Both the position numbers and the translations under genes were made by a program. Below are positions 35,176-46,712 of a DNA stretch of 49,077 bases, one piece after another (the first letter of the stretch is position 1; each line of letters opens with the position of its first letter). Location: contig JAPLKJ010000270.1 of the NCBI GenBank assembly GCA_026388125.1, positions 1-49,077 of the forward strand. Reading direction: 5' to 3'. This DNA is from Elusimicrobiota bacterium (GTDB taxonomy: Bacteria; Elusimicrobiota; Elusimicrobia; Elusimicrobiales; UBA9959). The notes below the pieces were generated by a model that was given only the letters and a program-made list of their open reading frames with translations, did no database searches and was not told the origin of the DNA.

Positions 35176-35478
35176 CTATCTATAGGTTTTTTCGGAACGG
35201 CGGCGGATGGCGAGCAGAATGACACGGCAGGCAGAGTCGTCAATATCGTAAAGGATACGATAATCGCCAACGCGTATCCGGTACTGGGCTACAAAAAACG
35301 AAATATGCACCGGCGGCCGAAGGGCTTTTATCTTTTTTCCCTGCGGGCGCGGGTTATCGGCCAGGGAATCAATAGCTTCTTTTATCCTCAGCTGCGCGGG
35401 CCGTTCCAACCGGGAAAGCTCCTTTTTAAAGCTTTTTTCCACGGCAGCGCTAGGAAAACCGACCTCATAGCCGGGCAT
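35176..35478 (-). CDS. Type II toxin, RelE/ParE superfamily
   Basis: 100 aa: ...IKEAIDSLADNPRPQGKKIKAL...YRIRVGDYRILYDIDD...VILLAIRRRSEKTY. The ATG lies 1 nt after the antitoxin stop. Confidence 0.8.
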   Translation of the reverse strand: MPGYEVGFPSAAVEKSFKKELSRLERPAQLRIKEAIDSLADNPRPQGKKIKALRPPVHISFFVAQYRIRVGDYRILYDIDDSACRVILLAIRRRSEKTYR

Positions 35479-35479
35479 A

Positions 35480-35758
35480 TCACAGGTCCAGTTTCTTCCA
35501 GAGCTTGGAGGCCGGGCGCCAGCCGCCTTTCCCATACGCTTTGCGGCCCTCGGCCACCATGGAGACCAGCTGGGAATCGCGGGCCTCCTCCAGTATTTCA
35601 ACTATCTCCACCATATCTTCGTAAGGCAGCAGGAAGTAGGTGGGCTTGCCGTGTTCGGTGGCTACTACCGGCTTATGGGCCCGCAGCACGCCCGTAAGAT
35701 TGTTCTTAAGCTCCCGCACCCCCATGTGCGTAGCCCGCATCATCTGTGAAATGGTCAT
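35480..35758 (-). CDS. Type II antitoxin, Phd/YefM-like
   Basis: 92 aa: [58 protein letters not shown]... GGAGGA lies 5 nt upstream of the ATG. It sits in the same frame as, and without a stop from, the uvrB ORF. Confidence 0.7.
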   Translation of the reverse strand: MTISQMMRATHMGVRELKNNLTGVLRAHKPVVATEHGKPTYFLLPYEDMVEIVEILEEARDSQLVSMVAEGRKAYGKGGWRPASKLWKKLDL

Positions 35759-37714
35759 ATTTCCTCCGTATTGTAGCCACACTTGCAGCCACTTATAGTA
35801 TACCAGATGCCGCGCCACAGTCAAGTCATGCAAATAGCATAGCAGACGAACCCGGCAAAGGCGTGTCGGCCTGGCTGTGTATATATCCGGAACTATTTCT
35901 TCCTGGACCGGACGGCTTTTCCTTTTAGGCCGGCCATTTCGCGGATTGATGATGCTGCGCGGCTCGATGTTGTTTTTCTTATTATAGGCCAGCTGTTTGG
36001 TGCGGCGGCGGGTCATTTCGGACATAGCCCGCTCCATGCTGCCGGTAATGCGGTCGGCGAAAAGGATAACTTCGCCGCAAAGATTGCGCGCCGCCCGGCC
36101 CGAGATCTGTATCAGCGTGGTCTCGCTCCGCAGGAACCCTTCGTTGTCGGCGTTAAGGATGGCCACCAGCGTAACCTCGGGGATATCCAGCCCTTCCCGC
36201 AGCAGGTTAATGCCCACCAGCGCGTCGAACTCCCCTTTGCGGAAAGCCGAAAGAATATCCAGCCGCTGCAGCGTGTCCATGTCGGAATGCATGTACTGCG
36301 CCTTCAGCCCTTTCTCCGTCAGGTAGGCGCTCAGGTCCTCGGCCGTTTTTTTGGTGAGCGTCAGCACCAGCGTGCGCTCTTTTTTAGCCGCGCGCTTCAG
36401 GATCTCCGCCGTCAGCGCCTTTATCTGGCCGGTCACCGGCAGTATCTTCACTTCGGGGTCCACCAGGCCGGTGGGGCGGATTATCTGCTCCACAATATCC
36501 GTTCTGGGGCAGGTGGCCAGCTCGTAAGGCCCGGGCGTGGCCGATACGAAAACGGTGGCAGGCCGCAGCGCCTCGAACTCGTCGAACTTCAGCGGCCGGT
36601 TGTCCAGCGCCGAAGGCAGCCGGAAGCCGAAATCCACCAGCGTCTGCTTGCGCGAACGGTCCCCGGCGTACATGCCGCGGATCTGCGGCACCGTAACGTG
36701 GGACTCGTCCACGAACAGCAGGAAATTCTTTTTGAAATAATCGAACAGGCAGTCGGGGCGAGTGCCCGGGGCGCGGCCGGCCAGGTGGCGCGAATAGTTC
36801 TCCACCCCGTTGCAGTAGCCGGTCTGGCGTATCATCTCCAGATCGTAGCGCACCCGAGAGCCCAGCCGCTCGGCCTCCAGCGGCTTGTCCTGCCCTTTCA
36901 ACTCGGCCAGCCGCCCGGCCAGCTCTTCCTCGATGGCCTTGGCGGCGGTCTCCACCTCGCCGGCGGCGGCCACGAAATGCGTGGCCGGGAACACCCAGAT
37001 CTCGGGCAGGTCCTTTATAACGTCGCCGGTGAGCGGGTTAACTTCTTTTATCGCCTCCACCACGTCGCCCAGCTGCACCCGCCAGGCCGTTTCGGCGTCG
37101 GCCGGGAAAATATCCAGGTTCGCGCCGCGCACCCGGAAAGTGCCGCGCCCGAATTCCATTTCGTTGCGCTCGTAGTTGATATGCACCAGCGCGCGCGTAA
37201 GCTCTTTCCGGTCGGCCTTCTGCCCCCGCTTTATGTTCAGGGACATGTTCAGGAAATTATCCGGCGAGCCGATATTGTAAATGCAGGAAACGGAGGCCAC
37301 CACGATGGTATCCGGCCGGCTCAGTATGGAAGTAGTAGCTTTCAGCCGCAGTTTGTCGATGTGGTCGTTTATCGAAGCGTCTTTTTCGATGTAAGTGTCG
37401 CTGGCCGGAATATAGGCCTCGGGCTGGTAATAGTCGTAGTAGGAAACGAAATACTCCACCGCGTTGTCGGGGAAGAAGGTTTTGAATTCGGAATACAGCT
37501 GGGCGGCCAGCACTTTATTGGGCGAGATTATCAGCGCGGGCCGCTGCAGCCGCTCTATCATGGCCGCCACCGTGAAGGTCTTGCCCGAGCCGGTCACGCC
37601 CAGCAGGGTCTGGTTGGCCTTGCCGGCCAGCACGCCGGCGCACAACGCGTCCAGCGCTCCGGGCTGGTCACCGGAGGGCTTGAAAGGCGCTACCAGCTTG
37701 AATTTATCGGCCAT
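35480..37714 (-). CDS. uvrB: Excinuclease ABC subunit B (UvrB). The UvrB-homologous part ends near 35875, and the ORF then reads through the inserted TA cassette to the antitoxin stop.
   Basis: GVTGSGKT, the beta-hairpin region [16 protein letters not shown] and the helicase C motifs match through ...[13 protein letters not shown]...[14 protein letters not shown]. No UVR (UvrC-binding) coiled-coil motif follows. Confidence 0.85.
35797..35824 (-). promoter_or_regulatory. Sigma-70-type promoter of the toxin-antitoxin cassette
   Basis: On the minus strand, TTGACT-16 nt-TATACT. Between the -10 and the SD lie direct repeats GTGGCTGC-AAGT-GTGGCTAC (about 35773-35792), a plausible antitoxin operator. 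Confidence 0.55.
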
Positions 37715-37761
37715 CAGTAAATTTTAGCAATATTTAACCGTTCCACAGGGAGCGGTATATT

Positions 37762-37789
37762 TGTAATACTTTAACAGGCCGTGCGTATT
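37762..37789 (+). promoter_or_regulatory. ECF-type promoter (copy A) upstream of the ECF sigma gene
   Basis: TGTAAT-16 nt-CGTATT. The 32-nt box TTGTAATACTTTAA-N4-CCGTGCGTATTAAC recurs exactly 1700 nt downstream. Confidence 0.6.
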
Positions 37790-37806
37790 AACAGTTGAGA
37801 GAATTA

Positions 37807-38304
37807 ATGAGCTTCGAAGAACTTTACGACAAATATTTCAGCCGGGTCTACAATTATATCCGCTACCGCGTGATAGCCCCGGACATGGCGGACGATATCG
37901 TTTCACTGGTCTTTGAAAAAGTGCTGGATAAATACGCGGCCTTCGACCCCGCCAAGGCCAATATCGAGGTATGGCTGTTCACCATAGCCCGCAACACGCT
38001 GATGGACCATTACCGGCGGGCTAAGATACGGGGCTGCCTGTCCATCTCGGACATGGAAGAGCTCATACAGTCGCCGGAGTCGGTGGAAAAAGCGGTGGAG
38101 ACCAAGGACCTGGGCGAAAGGGTATTGAAAGCGGTGGCGCGGCTGTCGGACAAAGAGCGCGAAATAATAGCTTTGAAGTTCACCATGGACATGACCAACC
38201 GCGACATAGCCGAGACCATGGGGCTGAGCGAAAGCAATATCGGGGTTATCCTGTTCAGGGCGATGAAGCAGCTTAAAGAACTGATGCGAACGGAAGCTTT
38301 ATGA
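37807..38304 (+). CDS. ECF (group IV) sigma-70 family RNA polymerase sigma factor
   Basis: Region 2 (YDKYFSRVYNYIRYRV...DIVSLVFEKV...WLFTIARNTLMDHYRR) and region 4 HTH (LSDKEREIIALKF...TNRDIAETMGLSESNIGVILFRAMKQLK). The ORF track starts at the TTG at 37795; I prefer the ATG at 37807. Confidence 0.85.
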   Translation: MSFEELYDKYFSRVYNYIRYRVIAPDMADDIVSLVFEKVLDKYAAFDPAKANIEVWLFTIARNTLMDHYRRAKIRGCLSISDMEELIQSPESVEKAVETKDLGERVLKAVARLSDKEREIIALKFTMDMTNRDIAETMGLSESNIGVILFRAMKQLKELMRTEAL

Positions 38305-38636
38305 CAGAAGATAAGACGAAAGAAGACTTCGGCGAATACAGCCAGTTGGCTGAAACGCTGCGCGGCCTGGATTTCAGCGTGGAAAGCGGCATACGCAACC
38401 CGCTGAAGAACAGGCTGCTGGGCAAGACCGCGCCTGAAACCAGGAAGTTCGTTCTGCCCCGCTGGCTGCTGCCGGCCGCCTCGGCCGCGCTGGCCGCCGC
38501 CGCCCTTACCGTAGTGGTGCTGCACAGACGGCCGGAAGCCCCGGGCGCTTACCTGTCATACAACCCGCCTTTCGACGCCTACAGCGACTGCGGCAGGCAG
38601 GGTCTGACGGATTACCAGTCCGTGCCGAGATTTTGA
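38301..38636 (+). CDS. Putative minimal single-pass anti-sigma factor
   Basis: ATGA overlap with the sigma gene. 111 aa with one TM helix (WLLPAASAALAAAALTVVVL) and no zinc-binding HxxxCxxC motif. Confidence 0.5.
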   Translation: MTEDKTKEDFGEYSQLAETLRGLDFSVESGIRNPLKNRLLGKTAPETRKFVLPRWLLPAASAALAAAALTVVVLHRRPEAPGAYLSYNPPFDAYSDCGRQGLTDYQSVPRF

Positions 38637-38646
38637 GGAGCCAGAT

Positions 38647-39408
38647 ATGAGAAAAAAAATAGCGCTGATAGCGGTACTTCTGTTCGCGGCCGGCGCGGCT
38701 TACGCCGCCGACGCCCGCACAGTGGACGACATAAACCTGCCGTTCACGGACGATAAGGACGCGCAGGGTTCCTGGCAGGCCGTGGATTTCGTGGCGAAGC
38801 CCGAGGCTTTCGACCCCAAAAAACGCGCCTTTACCGACGAGCTGTATTTAAAAGAGCTGGTCCTCCTGCCCGACGGCAAGACCGTCAACGGCTGGCTCAC
38901 CTGGACAAAAGGCGTGGTGATGCACCACGGCGATAAGACCGCCAGCAAATATCTTATCAAGGACCTCTCCGGCGCGAAATATATGTTCTTCGAATGGAAG
39001 AGCGGCGATTACACCATCCGCCACCAGGCGCCGAAATATTACGTGCTAAAAAAGACCGCCGGCATCCGGCGCGACAACATCAACCTGCCTTTCAAGGACG
39101 ACCCGCAGGTGGTGGGCACCTGGGAAAGCGTGGATTTCGTGCAAAACCCGGGGAAATTCACCCCCGGCGAAAAAGCCTGGAACGGCGACCTTTACCTGAA
39201 GGAATTGTCCTTCCTGGCCGGCGGCAAAGGCGGCAAACCCTGGTGGAGCTGGACCAGGGGCGTGGTGATGCACAGCGGTGACAAAACCGCCAGTGCCTAC
39301 ACCATAAAGAATATCGGCGGGGCCGACTATATGTTCTTTGAATGGAAAAGCGGCGACTACGTATTCCGCGGCGCCAAGCCGTATTATTACGTGCTTAAAA
39401 AGAAATAA
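38647..39408 (+). CDS. Secreted protein with two tandem copies of an unassigned ~110-aa domain (paralogue 1)
   Basis: Signal peptide MRKKIALIAVLLFAAGAAYA. The repeats begin DDINLPFTDD... and RDNINLPFKDD..., and each ends ...YMFFEWKSGDY..R...P.YYVLKK. GAGGAG SD. Confidence 0.8.
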   Translation: MRKKIALIAVLLFAAGAAYAADARTVDDINLPFTDDKDAQGSWQAVDFVAKPEAFDPKKRAFTDELYLKELVLLPDGKTVNGWLTWTKGVVMHHGDKTASKYLIKDLSGAKYMFFEWKSGDYTIRHQAPKYYVLKKTAGIRRDNINLPFKDDPQVVGTWESVDFVQNPGKFTPGEKAWNGDLYLKELSFLAGGKGGKPWWSWTRGVVMHSGDKTASAYTIKNIGGADYMFFEWKSGDYVFRGAKPYYYVLKKK

Positions 39409-39432
39409 CATCCTTATAACCGCAGTTTCAGG

Positions 39433-39460
39433 AAAAGCCCCCGGCCCCGGGGGCTTTTTC
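39433..39460 (+). terminator. Rho-independent terminator after paralogue 1
   Basis: AAAAGCCCCCGG-CC-CCGGGGGCTTTT followed by TC. Confidence 0.8.
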
Positions 39461-39461
39461 T

Positions 39462-39489
39462 TGTAATACTTTAAGCCCCCGTGCGTATT
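39462..39489 (+). promoter_or_regulatory. ECF-type promoter (copy B) upstream of paralogue 2
   Basis: Same box as 37762-37789, with 28 of 32 nt identical (only the 4-nt spacer core differs). Confidence 0.6.
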
Positions 39490-39528
39490 AACCTGTGGAA
39501 AGCAAACGCGGGCATAGGAGGCGGTATT

Positions 39529-40338
39529 ATGAAAAAAAGCTTAACTGCACTGTTCCTGGCGCTGATGACCGTGGCTTCGTACGGGTACGCGCTGGAAAGG
39601 ATTGTGGACAACATAGACCTGCCGTTCGTAAGCGATCCGGCGGTGCTGGGCGAGTGGGTAAGCGTGGACTTCGTCAAGGAGCCTTCGGATTTCACGCCCG
39701 GGGCGAAGCGGTTCCAGGGAAAGCTTTACCTGGAAGGCCTTAACTTCCTGCCCGGCGGAAAAACGGCGGCGCCCTGGTGGACCTGGACCAAAGGCGTGGT
39801 GATGCACAGCGGCGATAAGACAGCCGCCGCCTACACCATCAAAGAACTGAACGGGAAGGAATACATGTTCTTTGAATGGAAGAGCGGCGATTACACCATC
39901 CGCCACCAGAAGCCGGAATACTACGTGCTGAAGCGGGCCGCGCAGAAACAGGCAGGGAACGGCTCCCCCGCCGGGCTTACGCGGGCGCAGGGCAGGCTAG
40001 TAGATAACATAGACCTGCCGTTCGTCGGCGATCCCGCGGTGCTGGGCGAGTGGGTGAGCGTGGACTTCGTCAGGGAGCCCGCCGGCTTCACACCCGGCAA
40101 AAAAAGCTTCGGCGGAGAGCTCTACCTTGAAGGCCTCACCTTCCTGCCCGGCGGCAAAACGGCGAAACCTTGGTGGACCTATACCAAAGGCGTGGTGATG
40201 CACAGCGGGGACCATACCGCCAGCGCCTATACTATAAAGGAGCTGGACGGGCACACGTACATGTTCTTTGAATGGAAAAGCGGCGATTACACCATCCGCC
40301 GCCAGAAGCCGCAATACTACGTGCTGGAAAAGAAATAA
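39529..40338 (+). CDS. Secreted protein with two tandem copies of the same unassigned ~110-aa domain (paralogue 2)
   Basis: AGGAGG SD and the ATG at 39529, with signal peptide MKKSLTALFLALMTVASYGYA. The repeats begin VDNIDLPFVSDPAVLGEWVSVDFV... and VDNIDLPFVGDPAVLGEWVSVDFV... Confidence 0.8.
   Translation: MKKSLTALFLALMTVASYGYALERIVDNIDLPFVSDPAVLGEWVSVDFVKEPSDFTPGAKRFQGKLYLEGLNFLPGGKTAAPWWTWTKGVVMHSGDKTAAAYTIKELNGKEYMFFEWKSGDYTIRHQKPEYYVLKRAAQKQAGNGSPAGLTRAQGRLVDNIDLPFVGDPAVLGEWVSVDFVREPAGFTPGKKSFGGELYLEGLTFLPGGKTAKPWWTYTKGVVMHSGDHTASAYTIKELDGHTYMFFEWKSGDYTIRRQKPQYYVLEKK
39604..40329 (+). repeat. Intragenic tandem duplication, period 396 nt, about 85-90% nt identity by eye
   Basis: GTGGACAACATAGACCTGCCGTTCGTAAGCGATCCGGCGGTGCTGGGCGAGTGGGTAAGCGTGGACTTCGTCAAGGAGCC aligns with GTAGATAACATAGACCTGCCGTTCGTCGGCGATCCCGCGGTGCTGGGCGAGTGGGTGAGCGTGGACTTCGTCAGGGAGCC. 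Confidence 0.85.
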
Positions 40339-40354: not shown

Positions 40355-42070
40355 ATGCCGGAGCGCGTACAAATAACTGTAGCTGAAAGCGCGGGGTTCT
40401 GCCCCGGCGTGAAGAACGCAATAGACAAGGTGCTGGAGCTGGCCAAGCAGCGCAAAAGGACCATCTACACCCTCGGCCCGCTGATACACAACAAGCAGGT
40501 GATAGAGACGCTCAAAGAGCAGAATGTACACGCGGTGAGTTCGGCGGCCGAAATAAAAGAGCGCGGGGCCATACTGGTGATACGCGCGCACGGCATACCG
40601 CCGGAGGAAGAGGCGGCGCTGCGCGCGCTGGACCTGGAAGTGGTGGACGCCACCTGCCCGCTGGTGAAGCACGTGCAGGAGAACATACGCGTGCACGCCC
40701 GCAAAGGGTACGCCACAATTATAGTGGGCGACCGCGACCACGCCGAGGTGCTGGGACTGATGGGCTATACCGAAGGCCGCGGCTACGTGGTGGACGGGCC
40801 CGCCCAGGCCAGGGACCTGCCCCGCCTGGAGAAAGCCAACATTGTGGCCCAGACCACGCAGGAACACGCCGTTTTCCTGGCCGCCGCCGAAGAGGCCCGC
40901 CAACACTGCGGCGAACTGATAGTTTCCAACACCATCTGCAACCCCACCCGCCAGCGCCAGGAAGAGACAGTACAATTCGCGGAGAAGTCCGACCTGGTGA
41001 TAGTGGTGGGCGGCAAGAACTCGGCCAACACCGCGCGCCTGTTCCAGATCTGCGAACGGCTGGCGAAAAAAGCCGTGCACATTGAGAAGGAAGACGAGCT
41101 GAGAAAAAGTTTTTTCCACGGCGCCTCCGCTATCTTCATAACGGCCGGCGCCTCCACTCCCACGTGGATGATAGAGAAAGTGCTGGAGAAAGCCCGCCGC
41201 CTGGCAGGCGGGCGGGAAAGCCGCCTGCTGGAGCAGCTGGCCTTCGCCTGGAAGCTGGCGATAACCGGCTCGCTGTACACGGCGCTGGCGGCCGCCGCGC
41301 TCACCTACGTCTGCCTGAAGCTGGAGGGCGCGCCCGTTTTGGGCATGCCGCTGAGCATGGCGGGGCTTTTCGCCCTCAGCCTGCACATGGCCAACCGCGC
41401 CGCCGAGAAAGGCGCCGCGGCCCCGGACAAGGCCGGCAGGCTGCTGTTCGTAAAACACCGCTCCGCGGCGCGCGTTACGGCGCTGCTCTGCGGAGCGCTG
41501 GCCATTCTGTTGTCCGCGGCGCTGGGCTGGAAAGTTTTCCTTACCGCGGCCTTCTTCTGGTCCCTGGGCATGCTTTACCCGCATAAGCTGCCGCCGGGCC
41601 TGGAGAAGTTCGGCAATTTCCCCGCCTCGAAGGACATTCTTACGGCGCTGGGCTGGGCCTTCATGTGCGCGTACGCCCCGGGGCTGTGGAACGGCGGGGC
41701 GCTGGCCGATTCCACGCAGCTGGCGGTGTTCTTCGCTTTCCTGCTGGTGTTCACGCGCTCGGTAATGTTCGGCATCTGCCACGCGCACAGCGACCTCATA
41801 GTGGGCAGGGAGAATTTCTACAAGGCCGCCGGCTCCGGCTTCACTTACTTCACGCTGCTCGTGATCCTGCTGCTGCTGGCGTTCATCCTGCTCACGCTGG
41901 AAAGCATGAACTGGAAGCCCGGCCTTACCGCCGCGCTGCTTACGGGGCTGCTGTATTATATGGGCCTTATGCTTTTTTTCTTCTTCAGCAGGATACCGGA
42001 ACGGATCACGGCCGAGACGCTGATAGACACGCAGTTCCTGGTGCTGGCCCTGCTGGCCCGTTTCGCGTAA
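40355..42070 (+). CDS. ispH: 4-hydroxy-3-methylbut-2-enyl diphosphate reductase (IspH/LytB, aa 1-~283) fused to a ~285-aa polytopic membrane domain
   Basis: IspH has three cluster cysteines in the usual contexts (GFCPGV, DATCPLV, NTICNPT) plus GGKNSANT and AGASTP. The C-terminal half has about 8 hydrophobic helices. Confidence 0.85.
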   Translation: MPERVQITVAESAGFCPGVKNAIDKVLELAKQRKRTIYTLGPLIHNKQVIETLKEQNVHAVSSAAEIKERGAILVIRAHGIPPEEEAALRALDLEVVDATCPLVKHVQENIRVHARKGYATIIVGDRDHAEVLGLMGYTEGRGYVVDGPAQARDLPRLEKANIVAQTTQEHAVFLAAAEEARQHCGELIVSNTICNPTRQRQEETVQFAEKSDLVIVVGGKNSANTARLFQICERLAKKAVHIEKEDELRKSFFHGASAIFITAGASTPTWMIEKVLEKARRLAGGRESRLLEQLAFAWKLAITGSLYTALAAAALTYVCLKLEGAPVLGMPLSMAGLFALSLHMANRAAEKGAAAPDKAGRLLFVKHRSAARVTALLCGALAILLSAALGWKVFLTAAFFWSLGMLYPHKLPPGLEKFGNFPASKDILTALGWAFMCAYAPGLWNGGALADSTQLAVFFAFLLVFTRSVMFGICHAHSDLIVGRENFYKAAGSGFTYFTLLVILLLLAFILLTLESMNWKPGLTAALLTGLLYYMGLMLFFFFSRIPERITAETLIDTQFLVLALLARFA

Positions 42071-43262: not shown

Positions 43263-43399
43263 CTAAGCATTTACCGGCAGCGGTCCCAAAGCCCGCTGGC
43301 CGCCCGTCCGGCCCAGGGCCATGGCGTCAGTGCCGGAAACTTTCTCGTCCCCGTAGTTCAGGAGCTCCAGCAGCAGCGTGACCGCTCTCACATTGGGCC

Positions 43400-43428
43400 T
43401 TGACATACTTACATATTGTAAGTATACT
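43400..43428 (+). promoter_or_regulatory. Consensus sigma-70 promoter with an embedded palindromic operator
   Basis: TTGACA-17 nt-TATACT. The spacer contains the perfect inverted repeat ACTTACA-TAT-TGTAAGT. In-frame ATGs lie 1 and 7 nt after the -10. Confidence 0.65.
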
Positions 43429-44010
43429 ATGAAGATGATCATTGGGCTATTAAACCGCAGAGACCCGCTGCAGATCCTGCTGGCCTTATACCAGCGCGGA
43501 GGGCTTCGCTTTGGCCAGATCCAGAACTTACTGGACCTGAACCCGACCCAGGTGGACAGAGCGCTGAAATTCCTGACCGGCAACCGCTGGATCAAAACAC
43601 ACCCTAAGCCCGGCAGTAAAAGCCGCGGGCAGGCGGAGTACCGCCTTGAGAAACGCGGCGAGGCGCTGGCTGAAGCCTTCACCTCTTTCACTGCGGCGAT
43701 CCAGCAAAAGAAGGAAGAGCTCGGCGCCGCGGAACTTGCTGAATTCCAGGAATTCTGGCTGCCCACATTAGCTGCCGGAAAGAAAGTCATACACGGCAGA
43801 TCAGGCAGCAGCGTAACTATCCGGCAGTTTCCCCGGGATGAAAAAGAAGAACTTGCGGAATACCGCGCCGGCTGCCTGATGCTGCCGCCCAAGAAAAGGG
43901 TCAGCAGGGTAATGGAACTTTCCCGCAGGGTGGGTTTATTGAACCACGCCGGTCCACGGGTACCGCATATCGCCCCGCAGGTAAGGATAATCCATGACGC
44001 CTTTAAATAA
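43429..44010 (+). CDS. Winged-helix DNA-binding protein with an unassigned ~110-aa C-terminal domain
   Basis: HxlR/PadR/ArsR-like wHTH (LQILLALYQRGGLRFGQIQNLLDLNPTQVDRALKFLTGNRWIK...AEYRLEKRGEAL). The start is at 43429 or 43435, because the ORF-track start at 43378 lies upstream of the promoter. Confidence 0.6.
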   Translation: MKMIIGLLNRRDPLQILLALYQRGGLRFGQIQNLLDLNPTQVDRALKFLTGNRWIKTHPKPGSKSRGQAEYRLEKRGEALAEAFTSFTAAIQQKKEELGAAELAEFQEFWLPTLAAGKKVIHGRSGSSVTIRQFPRDEKEELAEYRAGCLMLPPKKRVSRVMELSRRVGLLNHAGPRVPHIAPQVRIIHDAFK

Positions 44011-44597: not shown

Positions 44598-44672
44598 GCG
44601 CGGTTAGCTCAGCGGTAGAGCGCCTCTCTTACACAGAGGATGCCACAGGTTCAAATCCTGTACCGCGCACCA
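44598..44672 (+). tRNA. tRNA-Val (anticodon TAC), CCA encoded
   Basis: Cloverleaf folded by hand: acceptor GCGCGGT/ACCGCGC, D arm GCTC/GAGC, anticodon stem CCTCT/AGAGG with loop CTTACAC, T arm ACAGG-TTCAAAT-CCTGT, discriminator A, CCA. Confidence 0.9.
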
Positions 44673-44711
44673 GTTTTTTCGATACTGATTCCAACCCGGG
44701 GGAACCTCAAA

Positions 44712-46712
44712 ATGTCCAACGACGAAAAACGCGACGATCTGCCGCTCGAAGAAATGCGCTCCGAAGAGGGCGTGGAGCTTATAGACGAGCCGAAAGAATC
44801 CCCCCACGTAGCCGGCCTCTCCCCCGAAGAAATAGAACTCAAGTGGTACCGGGAAGTATACCAGGGCGACACCATGCAGCAGCTCACGGTGCGCTCGGTC
44901 ATCATGGGCTCCTTCCTTGGCGGGTTCATGTCGCTGTCCAACCTTTACATCGGCCTTAAGACCGGCTGGGGCCTGGGCGTGGCCATCACCGCCTGCGTGC
45001 TCTCCTACAGCATCTGGAAAACGCTGCGCACGCTGCTGCCGTTCCTGTTCAAGTCCGACATGACCATCCTGGAGAACAACTGCATGCAGTCCTCGGCCTC
45101 CTCGGCGGGCTATTCCACCGGCGGCACCATGGTCTCCGCCATCTCCGCTTACCTGATAATAACCGGCCACCACATGAGCTGGCAGGTGCTGTCGCTGTGG
45201 ACCTTCTTCCTGGCCTCCCTCGGCGTGTTCATAGCCATCCCCATGAAGCGCCAGATGATAAACATAGAGCAGCTTAAATTCCCCAGCGGCATAGCCGCGG
45301 CGGAAACACTCAGAAGCCTGCACGCCAAGGGCAACGAAGCCTCGGATAAAGCCCGGGCCATGGGCATAGCGGGCCTGTTCGGCGCGGCCATCTCCTACCT
45401 GCGCGATAAAGGCCTGTTCGGCTTCCAACTGCCGGGCATGATCCCTTTCAAAGGCTATATCAAGGGCCAGCCGCTGGAAAAATGGACCTTCTCCTTCGAG
45501 GTGAGCGCGCTGATGATAGCGGCCGGCGCCATCATAGGCTGGAAAATGGCCTGGTCCCTGCTGCTGGGCTCGGTTATTAATTACGGCGTACTCGCGCCTT
45601 ACGTTTCCGGCCTGCCCGCCGACGCCGCCGGGAAATTCGCCATAGACACCACCAAGCTCGGCTACCGCGCCATAGTGCAGTGGAGCACCTGGGGCGGCGC
45701 GTCCATCATGGTAACCTCGGGCCTGTTCATGTTCGCGCTGCAGTGGAAGACCGTGCTGCGCGCCTTCGGCGGCCTTACGAATATTTTCCACAAACGCCCG
45801 GACACGGCGGCCGATCCTCTGGCGCATATCGAAGTACCGGGCACCTGGTTCGTCACCGGCACGGCCATCTCCGGCTTCGGCTGCATCATGGTGCTGCACT
45901 ACGCCTTCCAGACCAGCTGGTGGATGGGCCTGGTGGCCGTAATAATGACCTTCTTCCTGGCCATAGTGGCGGCCCGCGCCACCGGCGAATCCGACATCAC
46001 CCCGATAGGCGCCATGGGCAAGATAACGCAGCTTACCTTCGGCATGCTGGCTCCGTCCAACATGACCACCAACCTGATGACCGCCTCCGTAACGGCGGGC
46101 GCGGCCGGCGCCACCGCCGACCTGCTCACCGACCTTAAGAGCGGCTACCTGCTGGGCGCCAACCCGCGCAAGCAGTTCCTGGCCCAGTTCCTCGGCATCT
46201 TCGCCGGCACGCTGGTAGTAGTGCCCGCCTTCTACATACTGGTGCCCGACGCTTCCGCGCTGGGTTCCGAGCAGTGGCCGGCCCCGTCGGCGCAGGTTTG
46301 GGCCGCGGTGGCCCGGCTCCTGTCCAACGGCGTGCACTCCCTGCACCCCGCCGCGCGCATGGCCATGCTCATCGGCGGCCTGGTAGGCATCATCATCCCG
46401 CTGCTGGAGCTGGCGTTCCCGAAGCACCGCAAATATATCCCCTCCGCCATGGGCCTGGGCCTTTCTATGGTGATCGGGTTCTACAACTCCTTCTCCATGT
46501 TCCTGGGCGGCCTGATAGCGCTGATCTTCGAGAAAAAGAACCGCGCCGCGGCCGAGAAGTACATAATCCCGGTCAGCTCGGGCATCATAGCCGGCGAATC
46601 GCTGATGGGCGTGGGCATAGCGCTGTACGATGCCAGGGCCATGTTCTCGGCCTTCCTGGCCCCGATAAGGCCGTTCCTGCACTCTGTCAAGGTATTTCTG
46701 CATCTGGCCTGA
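44712..46712 (+). CDS. OPT-family oligopeptide transporter
   Basis: About 16 TM segments with OPT-type motifs (REVYQGD..QLT, GLKTGWG, QLKFPSGIAAAETLRSLH, TDLKSGYLLGANPRKQF). The start is set at the ATG at 44712, because the ORF-track start at 44640 lies inside tRNA-Val. Confidence 0.85.
   Translation: MSNDEKRDDLPLEEMRSEEGVELIDEPKESPHVAGLSPEEIELKWYREVYQGDTMQQLTVRSVIMGSFLGGFMSLSNLYIGLKTGWGLGVAITACVLSYSIWKTLRTLLPFLFKSDMTILENNCMQSSASSAGYSTGGTMVSAISAYLIITGHHMSWQVLSLWTFFLASLGVFIAIPMKRQMINIEQLKFPSGIAAAETLRSLHAKGNEASDKARAMGIAGLFGAAISYLRDKGLFGFQLPGMIPFKGYIKGQPLEKWTFSFEVSALMIAAGAIIGWKMAWSLLLGSVINYGVLAPYVSGLPADAAGKFAIDTTKLGYRAIVQWSTWGGASIMVTSGLFMFALQWKTVLRAFGGLTNIFHKRPDTAADPLAHIEVPGTWFVTGTAISGFGCIMVLHYAFQTSWWMGLVAVIMTFFLAIVAARATGESDITPIGAMGKITQLTFGMLAPSNMTTNLMTASVTAGAAGATADLLTDLKSGYLLGANPRKQFLAQFLGIFAGTLVVVPAFYILVPDASALGSEQWPAPSAQVWAAVARLLSNGVHSLHPAARMAMLIGGLVGIIIPLLELAFPKHRKYIPSAMGLGLSMVIGFYNSFSMFLGGLIALIFEKKNRAAAEKYIIPVSSGIIAGESLMGVGIALYDARAMFSAFLAPIRPFLHSVKVFLHLA

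Follow-up and report, generated by a model that had tools for sequence, protein, structure and literature searches.

A stretch of 49,077 nucleotides from an Elusimicrobiota bacterium (contig JAPLKJ010000270.1; hereafter the window, meaning the whole stretch) carries an operon for an extracytoplasmic function (ECF) sigma factor, a 111-residue candidate anti-sigma factor with one membrane span and an exported protein, which we term ModA; a second exported protein, ModB, is encoded downstream behind its own copy of the sigma-type promoter. ModA and ModB each consist of two copies of one module that has no usable family in Pfam or NCBIfam. Our best reading is that this is an ECF sigma/anti-sigma system whose ectodomain has become detached from the anti-sigma factor, and that the detached ectodomain is built on an uncatalogued, widely reused sensor domain. 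An earlier note on this DNA, made from the sequence alone, took the two exported proteins for the specific effector of the sigma factor. As worded, that proposal is not supported, since elsewhere the module forms the ectodomain of anti-sigma factors, of M56 proteases paired with BlaI and of HAAS proteins paired with PadR, and also occurs with a MerR-type helix-turn-helix (HTH) domain. 'Effector' is probably a wrong or incomplete description of what the module proteins do.

The module in other lineages

We assembled 78 genome loci with genes for relatives of the module proteins, and four contexts recur among them. In 32 loci, all from Elusimicrobia, an ECF sigma gene is followed by the gene for a membrane protein of about 105 residues and then by that for a secreted protein of two or three modules; about half of these loci then have a nearby gene for a single-module protein. 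The sigma gene lies 373-437 nt 5′ of the first module, and the first module gene follows the anti-sigma gene in every one of the 32. In the second context, found at nine loci in Firmicutes and Calditrichales, the ECF sigma gene overlaps the gene for a protein in which a short N-terminal part and a single membrane span precede two modules; this architecture makes the module the ectodomain of the anti-sigma factor. A variant at one Tepidisphaeraceae locus has a transmembrane-anchored module protein encoded 3′ of a gene that matches only Sigma70_r2. The neighbourhood survey suggested in the earlier note returns linkage to ECF sigma genes in 32 Elusimicrobia loci and nine Firmicutes or Calditrichales loci.

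The other two contexts involve transducers of different kinds. At 13 loci in Clostridium, Planctomycetota and Holophaga, a gene for BlaI (PF03965) precedes one for an M56 protease (PF05569) with C-terminal modules; M56 was also detected at loci L010 and L075, where the upstream genes were not scanned for BlaI. Carriers of BlaI/BlaR1-module systems that can be grown in culture include Clostridium muellerianum P21, C. thailandense PL3 and Clostridium sp. OS1-26. At four Planctomycetota loci, a PadR gene is followed by a gene for a protein composed of HAAS, a transmembrane segment and modules. Among 96 cluster representatives of the family, 32 have M56, nine a MerR HTH and at least two HAAS. Overall, in about 80% of the loci with sufficient upstream sequence the module lies in a transcription-factor-linked transducer or beside an ECF sigma gene.

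Since transducers of four different mechanisms have the module as their extracytoplasmic part, we consider it a sensor, or input, domain. Most of the fused systems lack a free module gene in the vicinity, which argues that the module there is the input and not the output. The genes 3′ of the fused systems do not include a recurring output: locus L049 (Clostridium) has sbcCD, SUKH and DUF3786, and locus L060 has an ABC transporter and Rrf2/prismane. On the strength of these gene architectures, the module is a portable extracytoplasmic sensor domain.

In PadR-HAAS-module loci the transducer gene is followed by a second gene (L029, 3369-4784; L038, 8739-10115; L042, 7296-8798), the product of which has an extra N-terminal domain followed by two modules, the first starting at residue 204-264, and resembles homologues P0110 and P0113. 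The pairing of a transducer-fused module with a separate module protein is thus, as far as gene order tells, one that recurs outside Elusimicrobia at these three loci. Modules also occur within large surface-type proteins that carry CARDB, Laminin_G_3, SLBB/HEAT, TPR, LysM or subtilase domains. Two giant M56 proteins of Planctomycetota, of 1,900-2,600 residues (L075, 993-8843; L010, 4032-9806), combine one or two modules with Poly_export/SLBB, HEAT and CarboxypepD_reg domains.

Organisation of the window locus

The elements that the earlier note had listed, namely the sigma gene, the membrane-protein open reading frame (ORF), two ORFs with signal peptides, a terminator and a second promoter box, are all present where it had placed them, on the forward strand. 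Promoter box P1 (37761-37792; TTGTAATACTTTAA-N6-GTGCGTATTAAC; repeat D3) has an ECF-type -35 element, TGTAAT, a 16-nt spacer and a -10 element, CGTA. It lies about 14-15 nt 5′ of the ATG of the sigma gene (37807-38304; 165 residues), with no clear Shine-Dalgarno sequence in the gap. The gene for the mini anti-sigma candidate (38301-38636; 111 residues) overlaps the sigma stop codon by ATGA. It is followed by modA (38647-39408; 253 residues), which starts 10 nt past the anti-sigma stop codon, with neither promoter nor terminator in that gap. An intrinsic terminator hairpin at 39430-39461, recognised both as inverted repeat I3 and by a terminator scan, ends the sigma/anti-sigma/modA unit; it is GC-rich, has 15-nt arms that are 93% complementary and precedes a T run, with a predicted folding energy of -24.8 kcal/mol (z = -3.8 relative to shuffled sequences). 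Promoter box P2 (39461-39492) shares 28 of 32 bases with P1 and is located 36 nt 5′ of the ATG of modB (39529-40338; 269 residues), with an AGGAGG ribosome-binding site in between. A GC-rich hairpin with a T-rich tail is also found at 37737-37756 (+), just 5′ of P1, mirroring the terminator-plus-box layout at P2, and T-rich sequence lies 5′ of the -35 element in several orthologous loci as well; the 37737-37756 hairpin may be an UP-like element or a duplication remnant.

Both exported proteins have a signal-peptide-like start, and each is an internal duplication of one module, as had been noticed before; we confirm four copies, of about 115 residues each, at 38710-39054 and 39058-39405 in modA and at 39592-39936 and 39988-40335 in modB. 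Relative to the first copy, the others show 57-60% identity, and 54 columns of the alignment are invariant. At the DNA level they form a four-copy repeat family of 300 nt with 63-80% identity, in which the two modules of modB are 80% identical. The first module of modB (module C) is closest to the single-module proteins of relatives, with up to 76% identity. While the 94%-identical relative L001 likewise has a two-module second gene, the close relative L083 has a single-module gene at the modB position, in front of ispH, and most Elusimicrobia relatives with a second module gene have the single-module version there. Given the 80% DNA identity of its halves and these single-module counterparts, the duplication within modB is recent and lineage-specific rather than the norm for the family.

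The sigma factor matches Pfam Sigma70_r2 (PF04542; E 2.7e-13) and Sigma70_r4_2 (PF08281; E 1.5e-12), with no match to region 3 in the Pfam scan, and passes the ECF superfamily model TIGR02937 with 107.6 bits against a cut-off of 42.9. Its best NCBIfam match, the equivalog TIGR02952 for BldN-family ECF sigma factors, falls short at 145.1 bits (cut-off 206.45). By these domain matches it is a member of the ECF (group 4) branch of the sigma-70 family, in agreement with the earlier call. Its orthologues 5′ of the module genes in the 32 Elusimicrobia loci are 35-98% identical.

A promoter box specific to sigma and module genes

The box of the window is 32 nt long (TGTAAT-N16-CGTA) and has exactly two sites in the 49 kb. 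Allowing up to three mismatches, 0.16 matches are expected by chance, and none of 100 shuffled sequences reached the observed count. This architecture is that of known ECF promoters, for example those of Bacillus subtilis sigma-W and sigma-X. We surveyed the 78 loci with 8 kb of flanking sequence on each side. Of the 32 sigma-linked Elusimicrobia loci, 31 have the box just 5′ of the sigma gene, the remaining one (L011) being cut off upstream, and the box is retained across sigma orthologues from 98% down to 35% identity. A relaxed motif, GTAA[TG]A-N14-16-CGTA[ATC]T[AT], gave 55 matches in 1.1 Mb of fetched loci; 54 of them lie on the coding strand, and the gene immediately 3′ of these 54 either encodes a sigma factor or is the second or third module gene of its locus. 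Such boxes precede even orphan single-module genes located 8-10 kb from the operon (L012, L068).

We then used the box alone as the query for an unbiased scan of metagenomes, limited to contigs with the strict box. It yielded 34 boxes on 26 contigs, of which 17 precede a sigma gene and 16 a module gene (two of the latter after manual frame correction); the last, at a contig end, is followed by a signal-peptide start. As all 33 resolvable boxes lie 5′ of a sigma or module gene, the 'dedicated output' of the earlier note holds at the level of promoter motifs, in the metagenome boxes as in the 31 loci. Similarly, the second copy of the sigma promoter box that it had pointed out, with 28 of 32 bases shared in the window, has counterparts in related loci, where they precede the second or third module gene. 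The conservation of the box across loci supports the view that it behaves as the promoter of the window sigma factor itself, which would be autoregulated, and as far as promoter motifs show the regulon would consist of the sigma operon and the module genes only. At five loci (L004, L007, L009, L023 and L070) the sigma ATG comes just 5-9 nt past the box (e.g. GCGTAATAACATAAAATG), and there the sigma mRNA is probably leaderless.

An uncatalogued all-beta domain

The module had been described as unrecognised, and it remains so after searches by sequence and by fold. Pfam and NCBIfam scans of the four window proteins gave no usable family for the module, only spurious short matches (PF07935, SdrD_B). 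The match of ModB to SSV1_ORF_D-335 (PF07935), at 24 bits against a threshold of 22, covers only positions 2-20 of the 68-position profile (EWKSGDYTIR), and we rejected it as a short-motif artefact. Searches of PDB sequences with a single sequence and with a profile of 94 modules returned nothing significant, the best profile match being a marginal alignment of the GxW motif with beta-lactoglobulin (E 0.16).

AlphaFold2 predicts two separate all-beta domains for the whole of ModB (pLDDT 89.6) and, for a single module, a fold of seven strands of at least three residues and a short helix (pLDDT 95.9, pTM 0.88). The structure prediction and Foldseek search that had been recommended for one unit were thus carried out on a single module and gave no significant match in the PDB: neither the two-domain and single-domain models against the PDB nor the single-domain model against BFVD found anything at E ≤ 1e-3. 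The top match, 4lqz (DUF4909; Staphylococcus aureus SAV1798), is non-significant at E 0.11, with overall TM ≤ 0.43. The best lipocalin reaches TM 0.43 with E > 1, and the model has seven strands, where the lipocalin/calycin fold is a closed beta-barrel of eight. In some homologues DUF4909 (PF16253) is matched marginally and in part (25-27 bits against 25, over positions ~25-72 of 127, that is, less than 40%), whereas the window proteins have no DUF4909 match at E ≤ 1. With Foldseek E values of 0.1 or more for the window modules against DUF4909 or lipocalin-like beta proteins, the fold has no assignment, and a distant relationship to calycins or DUF4909 is possible. To our knowledge, DUF4909 has no known function.

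The family is large, with 865 proteins at E ≤ 1e-3 in a database clustered at 90% identity and 1213 clusters at 50% identity, drawn from Elusimicrobia, Planctomycetota, Firmicutes, Acidobacteria and Calditrichota. Across these phyla the module retains 45-65% identity, and numerous polar positions in it never vary; such constraint suggests that the module has a particular ligand or partner that is conserved too. Literature searches on ECF factors and Elusimicrobia, on BlaR1, M56 and Planctomycetes, and on shared sensor domains did not find the module domain described.

The mini anti-sigma candidate and its tail

In the 111-residue protein, about 54 N-terminal, cytoplasmic residues are followed by a single hydrophobic span and by a C-terminal segment of about 36 residues (76-111), which would be periplasmic. 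As reported before, it is small and lacks a zinc-binding motif: HxxxCxxC is absent from its sequence, which sets it apart from the zinc-binding anti-sigma (ZAS), class I proteins. Its NCBIfam matches are weak (NF038083, 23.9 bits against 100; NF052375, E 0.025). We infer that it acts as the anti-sigma factor from its position, translational coupling, topology and conserved synteny; indeed, the pairing of the sigma gene with a small co-transcribed membrane protein, already seen in the window, recurs in 32 Elusimicrobia loci.

The best-conserved segment of these proteins is the C-terminal tail, with 61% and 53% identity within two clades, compared with 46% and 34% for the cytoplasmic part. In clade A the tail reads Y-x-L-P-x-D-G-Y-G-x-C-G-R-Q/R-G-L-x-D-Y...R-F-COOH and in clade B G-E-A/S-G-P-R-G-L-E...Y-V/I-P/H-F-x-COOH; that of the window protein is Y-x-x-P-x-D-x-Y-x-x-C-G-R-Q-G-L-x-D-Y...R-F-COOH. 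Conservation of an extracytoplasmic tail implies a partner, for which the obvious candidate is the module protein encoded on the same mRNA, 10 nt downstream. We also considered that the tail might be a remnant or mimic of the N-terminal N-I-D-L-P-F arm of the module; this was rejected, as hhalign of anti-sigma against module alignments gave a probability of 0.1. A PDZ domain is present at the C-terminus of the Planctomycetota M56-module protein of locus L024 (6390-9593), and likewise in homologue P0107. PDZ domains bind C-terminal peptides, and the one in the L024 protein may have a bearing on the aromatic C-terminus that is conserved among the mini anti-sigma factors of Elusimicrobia.

Proposed model and alternatives

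We propose the following model for the Elusimicrobia system. The sigma factor would transcribe two units from near-identical promoters, sigma, anti-sigma and modA from P1 and modB from P2. The ectodomain would have been detached from the anti-sigma factor and exported as soluble periplasmic module proteins, leaving a short conserved tail on the anti-sigma factor. The module proteins, ModA above all, would then act in trans on this tail, as RseB does on RseA, such that bound module proteins stabilise or shield the anti-sigma factor. Binding of a ligand by the module would alter its interaction with the tail, leading to regulated proteolysis of the anti-sigma factor and release of the sigma factor. 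Finally, resupply of anti-sigma factor and module proteins by the released sigma factor would constitute feedback and might also buffer the ligand. The periplasmic location, the ligand binding and the proteolysis of the anti-sigma factor are all presumed in this scheme. We give even chances to its core, namely that the module proteins act in trans on the mini anti-sigma factor, as its sensor or co-regulator, and are also fed back by the sigma factor. More tentatively, we suggest a wider version, in which a portable sensor of new fold serves at least four unrelated classes of switch (anti-sigma, BlaR1/M56, HAAS/PadR and MerR HTH) with one shared ligand or partner, and in which the Elusimicrobia split sensor docks on the C-terminal peptide of the anti-sigma factor and so controls its proteolysis. 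We know of no ECF system other than that of RseB for which such a trans-acting mode has been described.

Several points weigh against this model. The modB gene and the orphan module genes have sigma-type boxes of their own, as pure output genes would. Identity between the window sigma factor and those encoded beside the fused versions in Firmicutes is just 25-28%, so that direct descent by gene fission is no more than a possibility. The 111-residue protein matches no Pfam family at E ≤ 1, including those of the zf-HC2/RskA type; its anti-sigma function is deduced from position and topology, and the binding of its tail by a module protein is likewise deduced by indirect means. The hhalign comparison indicates that the tail is not a remnant of the module, and the Foldseek searches of PDB and BFVD provide no solved fold relative from which a ligand of the module could be suggested.

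The alternative that survives best, in line with the effector role given in the earlier note, is that the module proteins are pure output: periplasmic binders that sequester and neutralise the inducer without sensing it, the tail or an unlinked protease being the sensor, while the sensors of other lineages recognise the same ligand. Shared recognition of this kind has parallels in the BlaR1 sensor domain and beta-lactamases, and in the carbohydrate-binding modules of RsgI and cellulosomal enzymes. The boxes in front of module genes as independent units, including orphans distant from the operon, are in keeping with this, and so is the amplification of module copies (2+2 in the window; 3+1 or 2+1+1 elsewhere), which would suit a stoichiometric binder. 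However, given that most fused BlaR1, anti-sigma and HAAS systems lack a nearby free module gene, which points to an input role there, that modA is tightly coupled to the anti-sigma gene, and that the conserved periplasmic tail requires a partner, we consider it rather unlikely that the module proteins are output alone. The split-sensor and pure-output models could both hold: ModA may have a regulatory part while ModB serves as an amplified output.

Another explanation is that the module proteins are structural or adhesin-like components of the envelope, with fusion to transducers providing anchoring or a scaffold for protein-protein contacts instead of ligand sensing. The occurrence of the module in the large multidomain surface-type proteins described above would agree with such a role. 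Nevertheless, we find this improbable, since at about 80% of the loci with enough upstream sequence the module belongs to a transducer linked to a transcription factor or neighbours an ECF sigma gene, and the cross-phylum identity and invariant polar residues suggest a specific ligand or partner. Finally, that the box is the operator of a dimeric repressor (e.g. BlaI- or PadR-like) encoded elsewhere, with the sigma gene a mere neighbour, is very improbable and was rejected for a palindromic site: the window box does hold an inverted TAATAC/GTATTA pair, and its minus strand is matched too with three mismatches, but this dyad is not kept across loci, many of which have GTAATA...GTAATA or GTAAGA...GTAATA with the -35/-10 spacing and CGTA preserved, favouring a promoter over a symmetric operator, and the box lies on the coding strand, 8 to ~60 nt 5′ of a start codon, always alongside this sigma family and with the ECF promoter architecture noted above.

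Comparison with known systems

The closest parallel to the split-sensor model is the rpoE-rseA-rseB operon of Escherichia coli, in which an ECF sigma factor, a single-pass anti-sigma factor and a periplasmic protein are encoded in one autoregulated operon. The window shares this gene order and, in our proposal, the logic by which a periplasmic protein gates the proteolysis of the anti-sigma factor in response to a ligand. The two systems differ in that the window anti-sigma candidate is half as large as RseA and has no more than ~36 residues in its periplasmic segment, and in that the window has a second module gene with its own sigma promoter. Furthermore, the module proteins have no MucB_RseB match in Pfam, and no RseB is among the top 50 Foldseek or PDB sequence matches listed; the resemblance of the module to RseB is confined to the layout of the operon and the proposed role.

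Anti-sigma factors with ligand-binding ectodomains are known, for example RsiV, which binds lysozyme, and RsgI, which has carbohydrate-binding modules. The Firmicutes and Calditrichales relatives are similar to these in carrying the module after a single membrane span, in a gene that overlaps the ECF sigma gene. In contrast, the window ectodomain is encoded separately with its own signal peptide, and the domain family is a different, uncatalogued one. With respect to BlaI/BlaR1 (MecI/MecR1), the relatives in Clostridium, Planctomycetota and Holophaga have the module where the penicillin-binding sensor domain sits, whereas the window proteins have neither M56 nor a BlaI neighbour. Membership of BlaR1 (K02172) does not apply, as PF05569 matches neither window module protein and M56 is found only in the fused relatives. 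JGI annotation labels many free module proteins without M56 as 'bla regulator protein BlaR1' (homologues P0003, P0020, P0025 and others), which is probably a carry-over from BlaR1-like proteins with the same ectodomain. In a published account of the PadR-HAAS dyad (PMC11237479), HAAS is described as a relay that passes on to PadR the signals of the sensor domains fused to it. The Planctomycetota loci, with PadR followed by HAAS, a transmembrane segment and modules, would fit this relay picture. The window differs from the dyad in the class of its regulator and has no HAAS or PadR gene.

The analysis defines a widespread signalling domain that is absent from Pfam and NCBIfam and has no solved structural relative, and derives a functional hypothesis from its partners, in which one sensor domain would serve four mechanisms of transcription factor release. 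Identification of its ligand would at one stroke provide an annotation for hundreds of orphan systems of the BlaR1-like, anti-sigma and HAAS types, and the propagated 'BlaR1' mis-annotation of free module proteins can be corrected. With a sigma factor, a 111-residue anti-sigma candidate, one or two soluble proteins and a sharp promoter, the Elusimicrobia operon represents a minimal system for study in a heterologous host, and its sigma/anti-sigma/promoter set could be used as an orthogonal ECF switch.

Neighbouring genes

Downstream of modB, an IspH/LytB protein of 571 residues is encoded at 40355-42070 (+). Its LYTB domain spans residues 7-279, and the remaining ~290 residues resemble a multi-span membrane protein with no Pfam family, an unusual fusion. 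Two further ORFs on the reverse strand, 43263-43892 (209 residues) and 44604-46703 (699 residues), have no Pfam family at E ≤ 1e-3; the strand opposite the predicted 699-residue ORF has an ORF almost as long. Upstream of the sigma operon lies a uvrB ORF (35480-37714, -; 744 residues) with UvrB_inter, Helicase_C and UvrB domains and no match for a C-terminal UVR domain. It runs on in frame for ~150 residues into what appears by eye to be Phd/YefM-type antitoxin-like sequence, and overlaps an ORF for a ParE toxin (35176-35601, -; PF05016). From this arrangement, the 3′ end of uvrB may have received a toxin-antitoxin cassette by insertion or become fused to one.

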